64,000 nucleotides of DNA from Candidatus Thorarchaeota archaeon (GCA_048882645.1 JBHLRJ010000003.1:2409-66408); one strand, 5' to 3'. Positions 22,938-63,216 are shown, counted from the stretch's first letter. Translations and numbers: made by a program. The notes: generated by a model from the letters alone, not told the origin.

Positions 22938-23732
22938 TTAATTTTGAAGTTGTTTAATATGTTTTTCAATATTTTTTATAGTTGAAGGAGGAAGTTCACT
23001 TAGCGATTTTCCTTGAAACCTATTAAAACAACTACAACAAAATCTTAATTCATTTACTCTAAATTTACCTAAGGTATGTCTTCTTCCAGGTTCTTCTAAC
23101 CATGCTCCGCAGTTAACACATTTCTTAAAAAGATTAATTCTTCTATTAAGTTGAATTCTTGTTGATAAACCCAAATCCCTTCTTACGTTATTTATATTAC
23201 ATCTGATTCTTTGCATATCAGTTTGAAAAAGAGAACAGAGAACCATATCAAACAATTCATTAACATTTCTTCCCGTTTTATGAGATACTTCAATGAATCC
23301 ATCCAAATTGAAGTCTCTTGATAGTTGAAGCCCTTCTGAATAAGAGACATCTCTACAGGTTTCCAAATCTGAGTTGGTTCCCGCTAAGATTATAGGTATA
23401 TTTCCTGCATTTTCTCTAACAACCTGTAACCACTTGGGGAAATTTTCCAGTGTAAACTTATTTGTAATATCATAGAGAAAAATTGCACTATCGGTGCCCC
23501 TACAGTATTGAGAAAGTAAGAACCTAAATCGTTCTTCGCCCCCAAAATCCCAAATTTGTATTTTTGCCTTTTTTCCTTCAAAACTAACAGTCTTGGAGTA
23601 AAAATCAACTCCGATAGTTAATCCTAATCCTTCTGTATAAAATCCTGTTATATATCGGATTGTTAAGGAGGCTTTTGGGACAGAAGAATCCCCTAACAAC
23701 ATAACCTTAAAAGTATAATCATAATCTGTCAT
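22938..23732 (-). CDS. Rab-like small GTPase with an atypical P-loop and a C-terminal CxxC...CCxC domain
   Basis: G1 GDSSVPKA (no GK[ST]), G3 WDFGGEE, G4 TNSD, G5 SHKTG. C-terminal CVNCGAW...FCCSCF. Confidence 0.7.
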   Translation of the reverse strand: MTDYDYTFKVMLLGDSSVPKASLTIRYITGFYTEGLGLTIGVDFYSKTVSFEGKKAKIQIWDFGGEERFRFLLSQYCRGTDSAIFLYDITNKFTLENFPKWLQVVRENAGNIPIILAGTNSDLETCRDVSYSEGLQLSRDFNLDGFIEVSHKTGRNVNELFDMVLCSLFQTDMQRIRCNINNVRRDLGLSTRIQLNRRINLFKKCVNCGAWLEEPGRRHTLGKFRVNELRFCCSCFNRFQGKSLSELPPSTIKNIEKHIKQLQN

Positions 23733-23991: not shown

Positions 23992-24058
23992 TAATTCCGC
24001 CCAAGTCTTCAATATGGAAATAAAAAAGAATAAGTATGATATAATAAAATATTAAAAC

Positions 24059-24145
24059 TTATTTGACAATAAACACTGGATTGAATCCTGCGTGTTTACC
24101 AATATCATGTCTTATTTTTATTTCTTTCTTGGCTGCTTTTTTCAT
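24059..24145 (-). CDS. 28-aa basic peptide, copy 1 (MKKAAKKEIKIRHDIGKHAGFNPVFIVK)
   Basis: Own translation. ATG at 24145 and TAA at 24059-24061. Conserved paralogue at 26752-26838 with conserved upstream TATA. Confidence 0.4.
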   Translation of the reverse strand: MKKAAKKEIKIRHDIGKHAGFNPVFIVK

Positions 24146-24200
24146 TTTTTTCACTCTTTTTTAGTTTTTTTTTTTCTAATTATTATACTGATTATATTGC

Positions 24201-24208
24201 ATATATAG
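24201..24208 (-). promoter_or_regulatory. TATA-box-like element of peptide cassette copy 1
   Basis: The minus strand reads CTATATAT preceded by an A-rich BRE-like stretch, ~56 nt upstream of the ATG. Identical in copy 2. Confidence 0.4.
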
Positions 24209-24324
24209 TTTTTATTACAAAACTTTCTGTGAAGTTCGAATTAAATAAAAAGTTATAAAAGAAATTTGTAAAATTGCTCTTAAACGTTGAAGGATCCTAT
24301 TAAAACAGTTTTAAACCTAGGTCT

Positions 24325-25383
24325 CTAGACCAAAGTCTCAAAAATAGTTTTCGCTAGGTATGGGAATGATATTGTTTGATTTTTATACTCGGATAGAATT
24401 CTTTTGACTTCCTCAAATCTGTTTTTCAAGAGATTATGAAATTCATTAGATTTTAAGAAATCGTTAAACAACTCTGCGAATTCCAATTTAAACTTGTCTA
24501 TTCGCATTTCCTCTTTATCAAATAAATTGATCTCCCGTTTGAGTTCATAAATATGATTATAAAGATCCTCCCCAAAGATAGAGATATCATTTTGATAAGG
24601 TATCCCTTTTATTTCTCCTAATTGAAATGATTCACCTGTAGAGTTAATTAAAGATATTTGGTTTAAGCTCTCCCATGTTAAATTTGGTCCTAAAATGGGG
24701 ATAATTGGTATTTGATTGTCTAGTGCCAACTGTAGTTCAAATTTACATGGTTCAGAGTGTAATGAATTTTCAGTAGCAAAAAATAATAAGATATGACTTA
24801 ATGGGACGTATTTTCTCATAAATTCTATAAAGTTCATACCACCCTGAATCGCTTCTTCACTATAATATACTTTATAAATTTCTTCTCGCTCAGAAAGAAA
24901 TTTAGATGTATCCAGTATATTGATCAAATTGCTCTCAAAATCCTTTTCAGCATGACTACAAAACACAGTAATTGCATCATGTCTCCTGCAATAATCAAAT
25001 ATTTCAACTATATTGTTCTTTACAACCTGTGTCCACTCACCTTCCCATGGATTCCCATCTAAATGGATCTCATTTACACTTTTTAAATGCCACAATTTCA
25101 TAGGAAGTCCAGTTAATCTGTTACTCGTTAATCCGAGAAATTGTATCTTTTCGAGATTCATTATCGAATCTGGAAGGTTGGGTAGCTGATTATATGATAA
25201 GTTTAATATTTTTAGCGACTTCAGTTTATGAAAAGATTCTGGAAGTTTCTTAATTTTGTTGAAATATAGATTCAAATTTATCAAAAATCGTAAATTACCA
25301 AAACTTTCCGGCAACTGTTCTAATTTATTATTACTACAATCTAACTCTTCAAGTGTGATCAAATCTCCAAAACAATCTGGCAA
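24325..25383 (-). CDS. LRR + TIR-like domain protein (downstream part of an in-frame TAA-interrupted GTPase-LRR-TIR gene)
   Basis: LRR units (LxxLxLxxNxLxxLP) continue in register from the upstream ORF. TIR-like region ITVFCSHAEKDF ... ILLFFATENSLHSEPCKFELQLA. No ATG; the first codon is a TTG directly after the TAA. Confidence 0.7.
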   Translation of the reverse strand: MPDCFGDLITLEELDCSNNKLEQLPESFGNLRFLINLNLYFNKIKKLPESFHKLKSLKILNLSYNQLPNLPDSIMNLEKIQFLGLTSNRLTGLPMKLWHLKSVNEIHLDGNPWEGEWTQVVKNNIVEIFDYCRRHDAITVFCSHAEKDFESNLINILDTSKFLSEREEIYKVYYSEEAIQGGMNFIEFMRKYVPLSHILLFFATENSLHSEPCKFELQLALDNQIPIIPILGPNLTWESLNQISLINSTGESFQLGEIKGIPYQNDISIFGEDLYNHIYELKREINLFDKEEMRIDKFKLEFAELFNDFLKSNEFHNLLKNRFEEVKRILSEYKNQTISFPYLAKTIFETLV

Positions 25384-26490
25384 TTATTCTAATCGATTTT
25401 CAGCTAAGTCAAGTTGTTTTAGAGATTTTAATTGACAGACTACTTCTGGAAGATGAATAAAATGGTTTCCATTCAAGTTTAGATAATCAAGCTTCTCTAA
25501 TCTATTCAGAGAATCAGGAAGATCTGATATCCTATTTCCCCTTAAGGATAAATATTCGAGCAATTCCAACTTCCCTATTGATGAAGATAAATTCTCTAAA
25601 TTGTTTTTAGTAAGACCTAAAATTTTAAGATTTTTAATTGTAAAGACAAATTCTGGAATACTTGATATTAAATTATCATAAATCCTCAATTCTTCTAGTG
25701 AATTAAGTTTTGTTAGAATATCGGGGATTGCCTTTAATCCACATCTAAATAAGCCGAGACCTTTTACTTGATCTCCATCGATAATTACCCCAAAAGGTTC
25801 TGAAGATAATTTAGTGACTACTGGGATTTCTTGTTTTATTAATTTCTCTAGTTCTTCAAGAACTCTTGCTTGTTCTTGTTCAATTCCCCATCTATTCTGC
25901 TTAATGATTTGTTCAATTTCCATTGTAGGACGAAAACCAACTTCATCCTCGCTAATTTTATAATCAATTCCTTTACTTTTTAAAATTTGAGATATTAATT
26001 CCTGGAAAAGCATATCAACGTTTTTTCCTGTTTTTGCAGAGGTTTCAACATATGGGCAAGACAATTTATTAGCGACTGATATTGCATCCGACTCTGACAC
26101 TTTTCGATCATCTACTAAATCACTTTTGTTTCCTGCTAGAACTATTGGAATCCGACCTGTAGTTTGATATAACTCATCAAGCCAAGCAGTAACGCTTAAG
26201 TTAAAGGTATTAGCATCAGCAAGATCAAATACGACAATGGCTGCAGAAGCTCCCCTGAAAAACGTAGTTTTTGGTAATTTTAAACGTTCTTGGCCTGCCA
26301 TATCCCATAAGGTAAGATTAAGTACTAGATCTCCCACTTCTATTTGTTTGATAGAAAAATCAGCCCCGATAGTTAGAATATAGGATTCTTTGAAATGACG
26401 ATCTACATACCTCCTAATCAGACTGGTCTTCCCAACTCCAAAATCTCCTATTAACACAATTTTAAAGACTAAAGTGGTTTTTTCAGACAT
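25384..26490 (-). CDS. Ras/Rab-like (Roc-type) small GTPase fused to LRRs
   Basis: G1 GDFGVGKTS, G3 WDMAGQE, G4 NKSD, G5 SAKTG. A pre-LRR motif EQARVLEELEKLIKQEIP is followed by 5-6 LRRs. Ends at TAA 25384-25386 inside an LRR. Confidence 0.8.
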   Translation of the reverse strand: MSEKTTLVFKIVLIGDFGVGKTSLIRRYVDRHFKESYILTIGADFSIKQIEVGDLVLNLTLWDMAGQERLKLPKTTFFRGASAAIVVFDLADANTFNLSVTAWLDELYQTTGRIPIVLAGNKSDLVDDRKVSESDAISVANKLSCPYVETSAKTGKNVDMLFQELISQILKSKGIDYKISEDEVGFRPTMEIEQIIKQNRWGIEQEQARVLEELEKLIKQEIPVVTKLSSEPFGVIIDGDQVKGLGLFRCGLKAIPDILTKLNSLEELRIYDNLISSIPEFVFTIKNLKILGLTKNNLENLSSSIGKLELLEYLSLRGNRISDLPDSLNRLEKLDYLNLNGNHFIHLPEVVCQLKSLKQLDLAENRLE

Positions 26491-26751
26491 AATAATATCA
26501 ACTTAATAAATTGCTTTTCTTAAGTATTAGGATTATTATAGCATTTTTATTTTATTATCATTATCTTGTTTTTTTATATTAATAATGATTAAATAAAGCT
26601 TTAATTGATTCATTGAAAAAAATGAAGAATAATTGTTCAATTATAGTTCTAGATAGGAAAAAACAAATATTATATCATACCCATTAACATTTGAAAAGAG
26701 AAACCTTAAACATTTCTAATAAAATTAATAAAAAAAGGAGAATAAAAAAAA

Positions 26752-26838
26752 TTATTTAACAATAAACACGGGATTAAATCCTGAATAACTACCAACATCA
26801 CTTCTTATTTTAATTTCTTTCTTTACTTTTCTTTTCAT
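26752..26838 (-). CDS. 28-aa basic peptide, copy 2 (MKRKVKKEIKIRSDVGSYSGFNPVFIVK)
   Basis: Own translation. 20/28 residues are identical to copy 1, and the C-terminal GFNPVFIVK is identical. Confidence 0.4.
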   Translation of the reverse strand: MKRKVKKEIKIRSDVGSYSGFNPVFIVK

Positions 26839-26947
26839 TTTTGGCACCTTTTTTAGGTTTGTTCTAATTAATAATATTGATAGAATTTCATATATAGTTT
26901 TTATTCCAAAACTTTCTACGAAGTTTGAACAAAAGAAAAAGTTATAA
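26752..26947 (-). repeat. ~200-bp cassette (promoter + 28-aa ORF), copy 2
   Basis: See 24059-24258. The TATA-like ATATATAG is at 26890-26897. Confidence 0.7.
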
Positions 26948-26985
26948 TATTAAATTTATATTTAGGGAAAAACACCCATCATCTC

Positions 26986-52832: not shown

Positions 52833-53141
52833 TTAAATTTTAAATTCAGGGGGATTTCCAAAAGCTTTTAGAACCAATGCTGTTAAAATAGGTCCAGCAA
52901 CGTCTGTAACAGAAGCTTCATAAAGAGTAAAATTATCTAAGATTCCTTGAACCGCTATCGCCTTCCCTTCATACTGAGTTAAATCCACTTGTCGAGCTTC
53001 AGGAGGTATAACTTCTACTCTGCTAATCTCAGTTAAGCGGCTTGGGGCACTTATCGTAGGTTCTGGTAACAAAGGATGAAACTTTCCATCTCTAACAATT
53101 CCAATATATATTTCTTTTTCAGTCATGGATAACTCTCCCAT
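52833..53141 (-). CDS. hypothetical protein
   Basis: 102-aa ORF, 21 bp upstream of the MBL gene on the same strand. Confidence 0.45.
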   Translation of the reverse strand: MGELSMTEKEIYIGIVRDGKFHPLLPEPTISAPSRLTEISRVEVIPPEARQVDLTQYEGKAIAVQGILDNFTLYEASVTDVAGPILTALVLKAFGNPPEFKI

Positions 53142-53851: not shown

Positions 53852-55264
53852 CTATTTATTTTCTTTTAGAAGTTGGGCACATTTGGAAAAATATTCAACT
53901 GAATTAATTCGACCGCTACTTAAATCTTGAAATAATTCAGCAAACTGATCCCAAACTTCTTCAAACTGTTCTTTAAAACCTTCAGAATCTATATAGTTAT
54001 TTACCGACGTCTTAAAATTTACCCGTTCTCTATCAATTTTTGCTTGCTCTGGTTCAAATAAATGAATCTCCCGTTTCAATTTCAGGATATAATCATAAAG
54101 TTTCTGACAGAATGCTACGAAATCTTCTTGCTCAAATTCATAACCTAATTCTCTGCTTAAATTCAATTCTTTTAACTCTTTCCAATCTATATCTGGTCCT
54201 TTTATTGGTAAAATCTGAATATTATGTTTTCGAGCAAGCTCGAGTTCATGTTTACAATCCTCTGAATTATATATTGATTTGTTGGAAGCGAAAAACAATA
54301 CAAGCTGACACTTTGGTAATTTTTCATCCATGAAATCATCGATATTTCCAGCTAAATCTTCTTCACAGTAGAAAACTTTATAGATTTCATCCTGTTTTTG
54401 TAAATATTCTGAAATCTCTTTAATGTGAGAAATTTCAAAATCAACAACTGCATGACTTAGAAAAACGTTGATTGAAGCTCTCTGCCTACAATAATCAAGG
54501 ATAGTAAGAATATCTCTATCAGCAATTTCTTTCCATTCACCTTCCCATGGATTATGCCATAAAAAAAGAGTCTCTAAATTTTTTAATTTCCATAGTGTAT
54601 TTGGGAGTGATGTTAAAAGATTTTCTTCTATTAACAATTTTTTAAGAGATGTTAGGGTAGTTATTGCGTCTGGAAGGGAGGTAAATTGATTACTACCCAA
54701 ATCTAACTCTACGAGTGGAGTGAGATTGCCTAATGAATTAGGAATAGATTTTAATTCATTATGATTTAAGTTTAAGCTTTCAAGTGACTTTAGATTACCT
54801 ATTGACTCAGGGAGGGACCGTAACCGATTTTGCCTTAGGAATAACGCGTGGAGCGATTTTAATTGGCGTATAGAATTTGAGAGTGAAACTAATTGATTGT
54901 CATTCATGAAAAGTACTTGAAGGGATAACAATTTTGTTACTGGCTCCGGGAAAACAGAAAATTGATTTTCTGATAAATCTAGAAATTGGAGTGATTGCAG
55001 ATTCGCCAAAGATTCAGGAAGATTCGTCAGTTTGTTCCTAATTAAAAATAGTTTTTGAAGGGAATACAGATTCCCAATTTCTTCTGGAATGAATGTTAAT
55101 TTACAATCATATAAACTTAATGTTTTAACCATATCATCTTCGATTTTTACACCAATCCACAATGCACTTAAATCTTCTAACTTTGGAATCTGTCTGCCAA
55201 TCAATTCCTCTAATGCCATTAAAACTTGTGCTTGTTCAGGCTTTATCCCCCATTTATTACTCAT
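53852..55264 (-). CDS. LRR + TIR-like domain protein (uninterrupted paralogue of 24325-26490 minus the GTPase)
   Basis: Pre-LRR motif EQAQVLMALEELIGRQIP and about 9 LRRs. TIR-like INVFLSHAVVDF ... LVLFFASNKSIYNSEDCKHELELA. Confidence 0.8.
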   Translation of the reverse strand: MSNKWGIKPEQAQVLMALEELIGRQIPKLEDLSALWIGVKIEDDMVKTLSLYDCKLTFIPEEIGNLYSLQKLFLIRNKLTNLPESLANLQSLQFLDLSENQFSVFPEPVTKLLSLQVLFMNDNQLVSLSNSIRQLKSLHALFLRQNRLRSLPESIGNLKSLESLNLNHNELKSIPNSLGNLTPLVELDLGSNQFTSLPDAITTLTSLKKLLIEENLLTSLPNTLWKLKNLETLFLWHNPWEGEWKEIADRDILTILDYCRQRASINVFLSHAVVDFEISHIKEISEYLQKQDEIYKVFYCEEDLAGNIDDFMDEKLPKCQLVLFFASNKSIYNSEDCKHELELARKHNIQILPIKGPDIDWKELKELNLSRELGYEFEQEDFVAFCQKLYDYILKLKREIHLFEPEQAKIDRERVNFKTSVNNYIDSEGFKEQFEEVWDQFAELFQDLSSGRINSVEYFSKCAQLLKENK

Positions 55265-59866: not shown

Positions 59867-59950
59867 ATGACTAAATGTGCCTTCTGTGGTGAAAATGTAG
59901 GCTTTTTACCTTTCAAGTGCCGTTATTGCGGGAAAAATTTTTGTGCTTAA
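59867..59950 (+). CDS. 27-aa ORF encoding the first five Cys ligands of an AN1-type zinc finger, ending at an in-frame TAA
   Basis: Own translation: MTKCAFCGENVGFLPFKCRYCGKNFCA*. Same frame as 59957-62278. Confidence 0.5.
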   Translation: MTKCAFCGENVGFLPFKCRYCGKNFCA

Positions 59951-59956
59951 CATAGA

Positions 59957-62278
59957 ATGCCCGAAAATCATGATTGTTCCCAGGATTTAGCACTTGAAAA
60001 AATAAAAGATGAGGTAATTAAGAAAGTTTTAGATGAAGAAGATTTTCCGGAATTAATTAAAGGAGTAAAATTAGTGGAAAAAACAGTCAGCTTTCAAGGT
60101 ACTTTCTCAGGAGAGACTTTAATGTTAAAGGTGATAAAGGGGCATTCCTATGAAATACATTACCACATTAATCGACCATATTTTCAAAAGTTTGGTATTT
60201 TGATAAGTGATGAGAAAGTTTCGATGCAAGGAACAAGTCCAGTCTCTCAAGATGGTAAATTTTTATATAGTGCTTTAAGCACGGGAATGATAGGGGTTAA
60301 TACAAGGTACTTAGCTTCCCTTAATGATTTTCCACAGTTATTTGTGGATATTATCATATACGATCTAGGATCAAAAACAGAACTTACAGATAGATTTAAG
60401 AATATTCCAATTATACCGGAAGAAAAGCAAATTATCATTGAATTAGAGAGTTATCTAAATGAAACAATCCCAGTTGTTGAGAAATTGGGAGAAAATACGT
60501 TTGGAATTATAATTAAAAATAACCATGTAAAACATATAGATTTACACAGTAAGGGTTTGGAAGAGATACCTAGTTCAATTTGGGAATTAAAACAATTGAA
60601 AACACTTGATTTAAGTTCTAATCGTTTTAAATCTTTACCAGAGATTCCTAAATGGCATGATTCACTTCAAGAACTAAACTTAAGTCATAATCTATATCTA
60701 CAAGAGTTACCTAAAACAATAGATTCTTTAAAAGCACTCAAAAAATTAAATTTGAGTCATCGTAAATCTTTAAGTAGATTACCTTTAAAATTCAAGGATA
60801 TAGGCAAACCTTTTGGGTTAGACAGTGTGGATTTGAGCCACTGTAATATCTCTATAATCGTCGATTTAGAAAACTCGACAAATATTTTTACCAAATCACT
60901 AGATTTTAGAGGTAATCCAATTAGCCTTAAAGAAAGAAAAAGAATTTACCAATGGGACTTTCCAAAGTTATTCATTGAACCAATCTTATTTTTTATAGAA
61001 AAAGAGAGCAAATTGATTGAAGATACTCCAGTTGCTACATTACGAGATATCATTAAAAATGATCTTGAGGAGGATAATAGAGTTGTTGCTCTTTATATTA
61101 TTATCAATAATTATTTCAGTGAAGAGATACCACTCATTAGAGATATAATTATACAAGACGAATCAACATTAGTAATTACAACTATGTTTAAACTGCTGAA
61201 GAAAATTAATAATAAGAAAAGTGATGTCCTCATAGAGGAGATCCTTATGAGATATTCAAGAGTGTATCATATTAGTGAAGATGAGGTTCAATTCTTCATT
61301 GATTTAGAGGCAGAGTTAGTTGAGGAAGGGGATTATGAAATTATAAAAATTGGACATTATACGGATTATATATATTACGGACCTCTTCAGCCCTCAATTC
61401 AGGATCTAGGGATTGAATATGATCAAATCATGGAGTATTTTGGAAACTCAGACATTTTTAGGAATCTTTTTTGGGTTGATGATGGAAATGTAAAACTTCT
61501 TGTCGTTGGAGGATTTTTAAATAAATTTCTGCCTGATTCAATTGGACATCTTAAAAATTTAGAATTTCTTGACTTGAGGGGAAGTAGGGTAAAGTTTTTA
61601 CCTAAATCCTTTAAAAATTTGAAAAAGCTTCGAAAATTTTTTGTTGATTGCGGTTTTGACTTCCAAAATTTAGATGAGACGGTAAAAAAATCCATTTTAA
61701 ACAATATTTCCCATAAATTCCATCAACTTGGTATTAGTGATGAGGAAACAAAAGCGTTGGCGTGTTTTGAAATAATTTATGGCCAATTCCTTCAAGTTGA
61801 CCAGATAAATGAAGAATATGCAAATGAATTCGTGTTAAATGATCATAATCAAGTTATTGCTATTAGTATATTTGGTGATATTGAGGATCCTTCTTTAACC
61901 ATCGACAGAAAGATCCCCGATGAAATAATTCTATTCAAGAATCTTGAAGAATTTTTGGTCAACTACAGCATAGTTGAAATTCCAGATTCAATAGGAACTC
62001 TAAAGAATTTAAAGAAGTTGAATCTTGTAGGAAATAAAATTAAATTGCTTCCATATTCACTGAATTCTTTAAAAAATCTTGAAGAATTATATCTTAGTTC
62101 AAATAAACTTAAAACAGTACCAAACAAATTCACGAATCTCCAAAACCTGAAGCGCTTAGAGATAAGCTATAACAAATTGAAATCTGTCCCAGATTTTATA
62201 TTAAGCCTCAAGAAGCTCGAGATTCTTGATCTGAGTAATAATAGAATAGAAGAAATTCCCAATGAAATTATTTATTAG
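59957..62278 (+). CDS. large LRR protein (two LRR blocks); its N-terminus completes the AN1 zinc-finger motif
   Basis: Starts MPENHDC (the H-x5-H-x-C end of AN1, counting the H two codons upstream). Pre-LRR motif EEKQIIIELESYLNETIP. LRR blocks at ~residues 195-330 and ~520-773. Confidence 0.8.
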   Translation: MPENHDCSQDLALEKIKDEVIKKVLDEEDFPELIKGVKLVEKTVSFQGTFSGETLMLKVIKGHSYEIHYHINRPYFQKFGILISDEKVSMQGTSPVSQDGKFLYSALSTGMIGVNTRYLASLNDFPQLFVDIIIYDLGSKTELTDRFKNIPIIPEEKQIIIELESYLNETIPVVEKLGENTFGIIIKNNHVKHIDLHSKGLEEIPSSIWELKQLKTLDLSSNRFKSLPEIPKWHDSLQELNLSHNLYLQELPKTIDSLKALKKLNLSHRKSLSRLPLKFKDIGKPFGLDSVDLSHCNISIIVDLENSTNIFTKSLDFRGNPISLKERKRIYQWDFPKLFIEPILFFIEKESKLIEDTPVATLRDIIKNDLEEDNRVVALYIIINNYFSEEIPLIRDIIIQDESTLVITTMFKLLKKINNKKSDVLIEEILMRYSRVYHISEDEVQFFIDLEAELVEEGDYEIIKIGHYTDYIYYGPLQPSIQDLGIEYDQIMEYFGNSDIFRNLFWVDDGNVKLLVVGGFLNKFLPDSIGHLKNLEFLDLRGSRVKFLPKSFKNLKKLRKFFVDCGFDFQNLDETVKKSILNNISHKFHQLGISDEETKALACFEIIYGQFLQVDQINEEYANEFVLNDHNQVIAISIFGDIEDPSLTIDRKIPDEIILFKNLEEFLVNYSIVEIPDSIGTLKNLKKLNLVGNKIKLLPYSLNSLKNLEELYLSSNKLKTVPNKFTNLQNLKRLEISYNKLKSVPDFILSLKKLEILDLSNNRIEEIPNEIIY

Positions 62279-62358: not shown

Positions 62359-63216
62359 ATGATACAGAGATCTAAAATTACGACGTTTCGTAAGATATTA
62401 ATAATAATTACTCTTAATTATAACTTAATTCAATTAAATTGCTTTTCAAGTGATCTCAAAATTCTAGGTTGGATTGTACTTTTTAGTGTTTTAGGAAGTG
62501 TAGGTGCTATTTTAGCCGCGGCAAGTTTCATTTTATTAAATCAAAAATTCCAAAAGATATTAATATCCATATTGATTTCTTATGCAATTGGTATATTGCT
62601 CACAGCATCTCTTTTTGGATTAATACCTGAAGCAATAGAAGGTTCAGGTGGAGAACCCCATTTCATAATGTTATTTGTTTTAGGTGGTATATTATTTTTT
62701 TTTATCATTGAAAAAATAATTATATGGCGGAACTGTCAAAATGAAGGATGTGAAGTACACAGTGCTGCTGGACCTTTAGTTTTAGTAGGAGATGCATTTC
62801 ATAATTTTACTGATGGAGTTGTTATCGCAGCAGCATTTTTAACTAATTTTTCAATTGGTATTGTTGCGGGAATATCTGTTTTGATACATGAAATCCCTCA
62901 AGAAACTGGAGATTTTGGAATATTATTACATCAAGGATATTCAAGAAAGAAGGCATTGCTTTTTAATATTCTTTCTAGCTTATCAACAATTCCTGCCGCA
63001 ATTATTAGTTTTTACGTATTGGATATTTTTTCTGTATTTGTGCCGTATTTATTAGCCATTTCTGCAGCTAGTTTTATATATATTGCATTAACAGATTTAA
63101 CCCCAGAACTTCACCAAAAAGCTGATGCTAAACACAGTATTCGTCAAATTCTTTTAATTTTTGTGGGCATTTTGACAATGGCAATGGTTATTTTATCTGT
63201 TGGGCATCAACATTAA
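62359..63216 (+). CDS. ZIP family metal (zinc/iron) transporter
   Basis: HNFTDG and HEIPQETGDFGILL signature motifs; about 8 TM helices. Confidence 0.8.
   Translation: MIQRSKITTFRKILIIITLNYNLIQLNCFSSDLKILGWIVLFSVLGSVGAILAAASFILLNQKFQKILISILISYAIGILLTASLFGLIPEAIEGSGGEPHFIMLFVLGGILFFFIIEKIIIWRNCQNEGCEVHSAAGPLVLVGDAFHNFTDGVVIAAAFLTNFSIGIVAGISVLIHEIPQETGDFGILLHQGYSRKKALLFNILSSLSTIPAAIISFYVLDIFSVFVPYLLAISAASFIYIALTDLTPELHQKADAKHSIRQILLIFVGILTMAMVILSVGHQH

Follow-up and report, generated by a model that had tools for sequence, protein, structure and literature searches.

A private in-frame TAA interrupts a GTPase-LRR-TIR gene in a Candidatus Thorarchaeota assembly

In plant TIR-NLRs and in bacterial STAND and NLR-like TIR proteins, an NTPase serves as the switch, LRRs as the sensor and a TIR domain as the effector. 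Toll-like receptors have the same N-to-C order of LRR then TIR, and ROCO proteins (LRR-Roc-COR, for example LRRK2 and bacterial Roco) fuse a Ras-superfamily G domain to LRRs. Some cyanobacterial ROCO proteins also carry TIR_2 (Nostoc P0022, P0042, P0043 and P0059) and thus combine a G domain, LRRs and a TIR domain in one chain. When a gene of this kind contains an in-frame stop codon, two further classes of known systems come into consideration. One is archaeal stop-codon recoding, in which selenocysteine is read at TGA or pyrrolysine at TAG inside a conserved gene. The other comprises the nonsense pseudogenes and segregating null alleles of expanded LRR and immune-type families, where a sense codon is changed in a single step, the orthologues are intact and the stop is not conserved.

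We analysed a window of 64,000 nucleotides (GCA_048882645.1, JBHLRJ010000003.1:2409-66408) from a Candidatus Thorarchaeota MAG, with a G+C content of about 30% throughout. On its minus strand, an interrupted gene occupies positions 24325-26490, with 721 sense-codon positions and a terminal TAG. An ATG at 26490 opens 368 codons that run as far as a TAA at 25386-25384 (codon 369), after which 352 codons follow in the same frame and end at the TAG at 24327-24325. The strand reads GCT GAA AAT CGA TTA GAA TAA TTG CCA GAT TGT around the stop, which translates as LKQLDLAENRLE, then the stop, then LPDCFG. The TAA takes the place of the second x of L-x-x-L-P within the repeat LxxLxLxxNxLxxLP, and the repeat register continues unbroken through it. 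Ras/Roc and LRR matches fall in the upstream half and LRR and TIR matches in the downstream half, while the longest ORF in other frames of this region does not exceed 59 aa. The original prediction of a TAA splitting an LRR unit is thus borne out by direct reading of the minus strand, and its view of the locus as one gene with one stop holds as well.

All six frames of the window were scanned for same-frame ORF pairs parted by a single stop. This pair is the sole long/long one in which the second ORF has no nearby ATG or GTG of its own; the same-frame neighbours at 52833 and 11418 were rejected as ordinary adjacent genes, since each has an ATG of its own only a few codons away and their domains are unrelated. 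The NCBI annotation treats the halves separately, as MFW9864690.1 (368 aa, 'GTP-binding protein') and MFW9864689.1 (352 aa, 'TIR domain-containing protein'). The deposited MAG therefore holds two proteins where the organism's lineage has one, and surveys of Asgard small GTPases and of TIR domain architectures would miscount this locus.

The joined product is a Rab/Ras-like GTPase followed by a pre-LRR cap, about ten LRRs, a TIR domain and a helical tail. Its predicted composition of small GTPase, LRR and TIR is supported by Pfam, by the G1-G5 motifs and by a model of the TIR domain. The GTPase domain covers residues 10-170 (25981-26463, minus strand; Pfam Ras 9.7e-48, Roc 2.1e-28) and has all five motifs intact: GDFGVGKT (G1), T40 (G2), DMAGQE (G3), NKSD (G4) and SAK (G5). 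Pfam scores for the upstream ORF are 162 bits for Ras (cut-off 21.6), 99 bits for Roc and 73 bits for LRR_8, and the orthologue P0001 reaches 87.6 bits for TIGR00231 small_GTP (cut-off 42.5). On these motifs and above-threshold profiles, the N-terminal domain is a Ras-superfamily small GTPase. A linker of only about 80 residues leads from the G domain to the LRR region (25045-25893, minus strand), which consists of the pre-LRR cap (..LEELEKLIKQEIPVV..GV.IDGD.V..L.L) and about ten LxxLxLxxNxLxxLP units; the unit that bears the stop reads LKQLDLAENRLE, stop, LP.

A G domain that matches Roc and is fused to LRRs and TIR recalls the ROCO proteins, above all the cyanobacterial ones. However, the gene has no Pfam match to a COR domain at E <= 0.01, PF16095 and PF25497 are absent from the domains of P0001-P0008, and the linker is too short for COR. 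We therefore conclude that this is not a ROCO protein. The cyanobacterial matches have COR, whereas here the order is G domain, LRR, TIR, and the Ras/Rab score exceeds that for Roc.

The TIR domain lies at about residues 505-635 of the joined protein (24586-24978, minus strand). Pfam matches in the downstream ORF are LRR_8 (52 bits) and TIR_2 (33.3 bits, cut-off 28). The last 232 residues, modelled with AlphaFold2 from a 22-sequence alignment, reach a mean pLDDT of 91.7, and in a Foldseek comparison with the PDB all 15 matches at E <= 0.001 are TIR domains, the lowest E-value being 1.4e-4. Among them are AbTir (7uxu), with a target TM-score of 0.76, SPARTA TIR-APAZ, MyD88, BtpA and RPPT-TIR, and further plant TIRs (RPP1, RPS4, RUN1 and L7) appear at E up to about 0.01. 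Profile, predicted model and Foldseek agree in confirming a TIR fold. An all-helical region of about 85 aa, with five predicted helices and conserved in the family, forms the C-terminus (24328-24585, minus strand).

Within the TIR domain, the GAA codon of Glu585 (24736-24738, minus strand) belongs to an S-x-P-C-K-F-E-L stretch and is invariant in the nine aligned orthologues and in the paralogue at 53852-55264. The family profile aligns S-L-x-S-x-P-C-K-F-E-L-Q-L-A with the (W)C-x-x-E-L of Cat1 and TLR2 at weak E-values of 0.016-0.1, the usual Trp being replaced by Pro in this family. We take the position to be that of the catalytic Glu of NAD-cleaving TIRs, as had been proposed for the Glu of CKFEL. 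The residue does sit in the conserved motif and does not vary among relatives, but non-catalytic TLR2 also has Glu there, so its presence does not establish NADase activity. The paralogue itself is an uninterrupted LRR and TIR_2 protein without the GTPase according to Pfam, in agreement with the LRR-TIR layout originally described for it.

The resemblance to TIR-NLRs extends to the fold matches with plant TIRs and to the conserved Glu of C-x-x-E-L. Unlike TIR-NLR and STAND proteins, the protein has a 170-aa small GTPase instead of an NB-ARC or STAND module, its TIR domain is C-terminal and its role in defence is putative; the original phrase of a Ras-like GTPase in place of a STAND NTPase is an analogy for a putative function. 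In contrast to Toll-like receptors, it is cytoplasmic, neither a signal peptide nor a transmembrane segment being evident, and carries a GTPase at its N-terminus, and the resemblance to them is one of domain shuffling, not orthology. By its domains, the intact protein may be a GTPase-switched LRR sensor, in which the small GTPase would act as a nucleotide-dependent switch, the LRR solenoid would sense a ligand or partner, and the TIR domain would serve as an oligomerising effector or as a scaffold.

PADLOC defence models returned no system match; the only similarities were a P-loop match of P0001 to LeoA at 14.5 bits and a match of the paralogue to ThsA at 13.7 bits. A search of the available literature library found no description of the GTPase-LRR-TIR architecture in Asgard archaea and no paper citing the accessions. 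The family, found here only in Promethearchaeota- and Hermodarchaeota-type MAGs and in metagenome contigs, is a new combination of modules that are themselves known, and cyanobacteria have related ROCO-TIR fusions. As a GTPase-LRR-TIR family without COR it is mildly interesting, and it bears on Asgard signalling and on the origin of immune-type domain combinations.

The interrupted gene is orthologous to uninterrupted proteins of 721-728 aa from Promethearchaeota and Hermodarchaeota MAGs. A search with the joined protein yielded eight full-length, uninterrupted relatives with the same domain set (633-728 aa, 46-94% identity); some belong to MAGs that bear the label Promethearchaeota or Hermodarchaeota, the others to metagenome contigs without a label. 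In the column of the stop, these relatives (P0001-P0008) have E, E, K, K, S, K, N and E. A further 721-aa member of the cluster (P0199) has E, and in two JGI metagenome contigs (L005 and L006) the gene is uninterrupted and has a Lys codon, AAA, at this position. The alignment of orthologues suggested with the original prediction thus gives a sense codon (E, K, S or N) in all 11 other orthologous proteins or loci, at 46-94% identity; the same split, which together with independent start and RBS signals had been named as the mark of a genuine two-gene arrangement, occurs in none of them.

The closest relative, P0001 (94% amino acid identity), is encoded by GCA_048940205.1 contig JBHLOT010000008.1 (L001) and by a contig of Logan SRR30758824 (L002). 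Its locus and the window are collinear for 15 kb, with about 94% nucleotide identity; over the gene they differ at 104 of 2166 nt, and the relative has GAA CTC in place of the window's TAA TTG. Downstream of the stop, the codon differences from this relative are 32 synonymous and 12 non-synonymous, as compared with 29 and 27 upstream. The downstream half therefore bears no sign of decay or relaxed constraint, and this lack of decay would fit only a very recent event, or an error.

Closer still is a Logan contig (SRR30758835_13943, L003, 3266 bp) that was found through the neighbouring Rab-like protein (22938-23732), which it encodes with exactly the same sequence. It corresponds to window positions 25404-22139, ends 18 nt from the stop site, and agrees with the window in all but one of its 3266 bases. 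The exception is the base that opens the stop codon (plus-strand coordinate 25386), where it has G for T, giving GAA TTG; Glu is thus encoded by GAA in L001, L002 and L003 alike. At this resolution, the contig is an independent assembly of the same strain with the intact allele. The 3266-bp overlap contains no further lesion relative to that allele and, the stop base being the only difference, no other substitution in these 3.3 kb is as young as the lesion.

Searches for other copies were made in a public gene-position index and in collections of genome and metagenome contigs. Exact-product look-ups of the 368-aa and 352-aa ORFs in the index returned no encoding contig, and those of other products of the window (a 773-aa AN1-LRR ORF, P0121, the 166-aa upstream gene and the 285-aa gene at 62359) returned nothing, from which it follows that the window's own MAG is absent from the index. 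Exact-pattern scans across the stop site, in which the three variable bases were set to N, gave no match in either contig collection, and a related-locus search of the genome contigs found no relative. Neither the index nor the two collections yielded another assembly that carries the T allele.

The perfect continuation of reading frame and repeat register through the stop is what would be seen if programmed readthrough or local recoding of the TAA yielded a full-length 721-aa protein, and a 121-nt segment that spans the stop and the sequence behind it has a slightly more stable predicted fold than its shuffled controls (z = -2.1). This value is unremarkable, however, as 5 of 200 shuffles do as well, and the stop is kept neither in any relative nor in the same strain, at a site where the residue is variable. 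TAA is also the main terminator of the 52 plausible genes in the window (39 TAA, 11 TAG and 2 TGA), a usage on which global reassignment of TAA was rejected. ARAGORN detected no tRNA gene in the 64-kb window, and the scan for Rfam families gave no match. The codon reassignment systems known from archaea act at TGA (Sec) and TAG (Pyl) rather than at TAA, which also counts against readthrough. The contrast with archaeal recoding is one of codon and of conservation; neither a recoding element nor a dedicated tRNA is in view in the window, and the same strain carries a sense codon. Since that strain has GAA in an independent assembly, conserved recoding is excluded. The readthrough option of the original prediction is refuted by this GAA, by the lack of a stop in any orthologue, by the variable residue and by the terminator usage, and its probability is close to nil. 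With a stop that is a private one-base difference and a codon that is the normal terminator, the locus carries no weight as a recoding candidate.

A genuine gene fission would have both halves made, the second by termination-reinitiation at the TTG (Leu370; 25381-25383, minus strand), and both at work, one as a GTPase-LRR protein and the other as an LRR-TIR protein. The TTG directly follows the TAA, is a permitted start codon and is the mechanical start of the 352-aa ORF; the NCBI pipeline annotates two proteins, and the window encodes the GTPase-less LRR-TIR paralogue. It had been held against an independent downstream gene that it has neither an ATG nor an SD-like run. TTG is indeed its first codon, and none of GGTG, GGAG, GAGG or AGGT is present in the 25 nt before it, but the argument is weak: only 11 of 42 window genes have an SD-like motif, so that the missing motif is uninformative and no obstacle to fission. 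A scan with a sigma-70 promoter and terminator model, which is not applicable to an archaeon, gave no excess.

The same-strain contig speaks against fission. TTG is already a Leu codon in its intact allele and so was not selected as a start, and on this ground we rejected the CTC-to-TTG difference beside the stop as the evolution of a new start codon. Moreover, the 11 other orthologous proteins or loci are all unsplit, the break interrupts a continuous LRR solenoid midway instead of lying at a domain boundary, and selection has had no time to act on a lesion of such youth. We regard fission as very improbable.

Our preferred reading, to which we assign a probability of roughly 0.55, is that the locus is an ordinary single 721-codon gene with a one-base change of GAA to TAA (Glu369 to stop) in this assembly, the T being a real and very young nonsense allele. 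Of the sense codons originally offered as the source of a recent nonsense mutation (CAA, GAA or AAA), GAA is the one found in the same-strain contig and in the closest relative. The T would then be an allele of the sampled population that exists beside an intact GAA allele, and the gene carrying it a nascent pseudogene. Ribosomes would stop at this TAA as at any other gene end in the genome and release the GTPase with half of an LRR solenoid, a truncated product that is probably non-functional, and the LRR-TIR half would not be made or would be made at trace level only. The lesion is an ordinary one, and the multidomain gene that bears it, although under-described, is unremarkable. A bolder version, which we consider unlikely, would have the intact 721-aa protein define an Asgard-lineage class of cytoplasmic LRR-TIR receptors, switched by a eukaryote-like Rab/Ras GTPase and not by a STAND NTPase, and the TAA a true segregating null allele. 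If true, a presence/absence-type polymorphism like that of costly plant immune receptors would have been caught in a natural archaeal population.

Besides the near-identical Logan contig, the GAA of the closest relative and the intact orthologues, a real allele is supported by the perfect agreement of the two assemblies at every other position of their overlap. The end of the Logan contig so close to the site would fit reads split between two alleles, which is only suggestive, as the break may reflect mere low coverage. Against a real allele, the T is without independent assembly support, the only independent sequence over the site reads G, and a wrong consensus base in a MAG of low coverage would be indistinguishable from it. 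Such an error, with GAA in the organism and the gene intact, had been raised in the original prediction too and is a serious possibility, though at clearly less than even odds. In its favour, the sole independent same-strain assembly has G while being otherwise identical over 3266 nt, and neither half is encoded as a separate product by any contig in the gene index. On the other side, the 3.27-kb overlap has no other discrepancy, and this assembly is not generally error-ridden. We slightly favour the nonsense allele over a consensus error, and infer that the T is a true allele. As compared with the nonsense pseudogenes of LRR and immune-type families, the GTPase-LRR-TIR gene shows no second lesion and no relaxed selection, and the allele itself is putative; what it shares with them, in addition to the points above, is the presence of related lesions nearby.

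One of these is the second in-frame TAA of the original prediction, which also proved correct. It lies at 59948-59950 (plus strand) in an AN1-LRR gene (59867-62278), whose ATG at 59867 opens MTKCAFCGENVGFLPFKCRYCGKNFCA, then the stop, then HRMPENHDC. The TAA falls in the AN1 zinc finger, within the x2 spacer that parts its fifth Cys from its first His; orthologues have FCAEHR or FCGKHR here, and the closest relative (P0195, 836 aa, locus L004) has GAA, so that the change is again GAA to TAA. In addition, the window gene is without its last 38 or so codons owing to a 349-bp 3' deletion relative to L004, with its junction at 62275/62276, the C-terminus being kept in more distant orthologues. NCBI annotates only a 773-aa remainder that starts at an internal ATG. 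This gene looks like a true decaying pseudogene, and its two lesions imply that real decay occurs in the LRR family in this genome.

The two stops also bear on a consensus error. Both are G:C to T:A changes, which are likewise the signature of oxidative-damage artefacts in short-read libraries. However, GAA is among the commonest TAA-capable codons in this AT-rich genome with its Glu- and Lys-rich proteome, and two G-to-T changes carry little weight; nor can the 349-bp deletion be explained as a base-call error. The other nearby lesion is found in the closest relative (L001), where the neighbouring Rab-like gene appears to be disrupted: about 1 kb differs from the window, and only a 57-aa Ras remnant is called.

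Three LRR proteins of the window share a pre-LRR module (..E L E x L I x x x I P V V ... F G V/I I I ... V x x L x L) and differ in the partners found at their N or C terminus. The module lies at 25893-25700 on the minus strand in the gene where its partners are a GTPase and a TIR domain, while the second protein (59867-62278, plus strand) carries an AN1 zinc finger and the third (53852-55264, minus strand) only a TIR domain. Because the same module occurs with different partners in these three proteins, their sequences suggest domain shuffling around one common LRR cassette.

The AN1-zinc-finger-LRR gene carries two lesions. The first is a TAA at 59948-59950, derived from GAA and located within the zinc finger. 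The second is a 349-bp deletion relative to the locus of its closest relative (L004), with a junction at approximately 62275/62276, which removes the final ~38 codons of the gene together with part of the intergenic region. The NCBI annotation retains only a 773-aa remainder (MFW9864725.1).

The Rab-like gene that adjoins the GTPase-LRR-TIR gene is intact in both the window (22938-23732) and a third MAG (P0201), encoding 264 aa in each, and is seemingly disrupted in the 94%-identical relative (L001, 6158-7434). There, its 5' part is replaced by ~1 kb of unlike sequence, and the gene call comprises only a 57-aa Ras remnant.

We also found two paralogous 28-codon ORFs on the minus strand (26752-26838 and 24059-24145), whose products are MKRKVKKEIKIRSDVGSYSGFNPVFIVK and MKKAAKKEIKIRHDIGKHAGFNPVFIVK. 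They lie inside a direct repeat of ~220 bp (26741-26960 and 24048-24270, 79% identical), and a Ras-family GTPase gene is located 250-330 nt downstream of each. Both copies are kept in the relative (L001 and L002), and their C-terminal GFNPVFIVK differs at synonymous sites only. Comparison with Pfam-type, NCBIfam and Rfam models returned no matches. These ORFs may represent an unannotated small protein gene that was duplicated along with the GTPase genes.

The first copy is preceded by GGTG. Among the 42 gene starts in the window, only 11 have a GGTG, GGAG, GAGG or AGGT motif in the preceding 25 nt, and judging from these upstream sequences most genes are probably leaderless or lack an SD-motif lead.

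Finally, the record bears the name "Candidatus Thorarchaeota archaeon", every close relative of the examined genes carries a Promethearchaeota or Hermodarchaeota label, and the G+C content of the window is ~30%. The MAG may have been assigned an incorrect taxonomic name.
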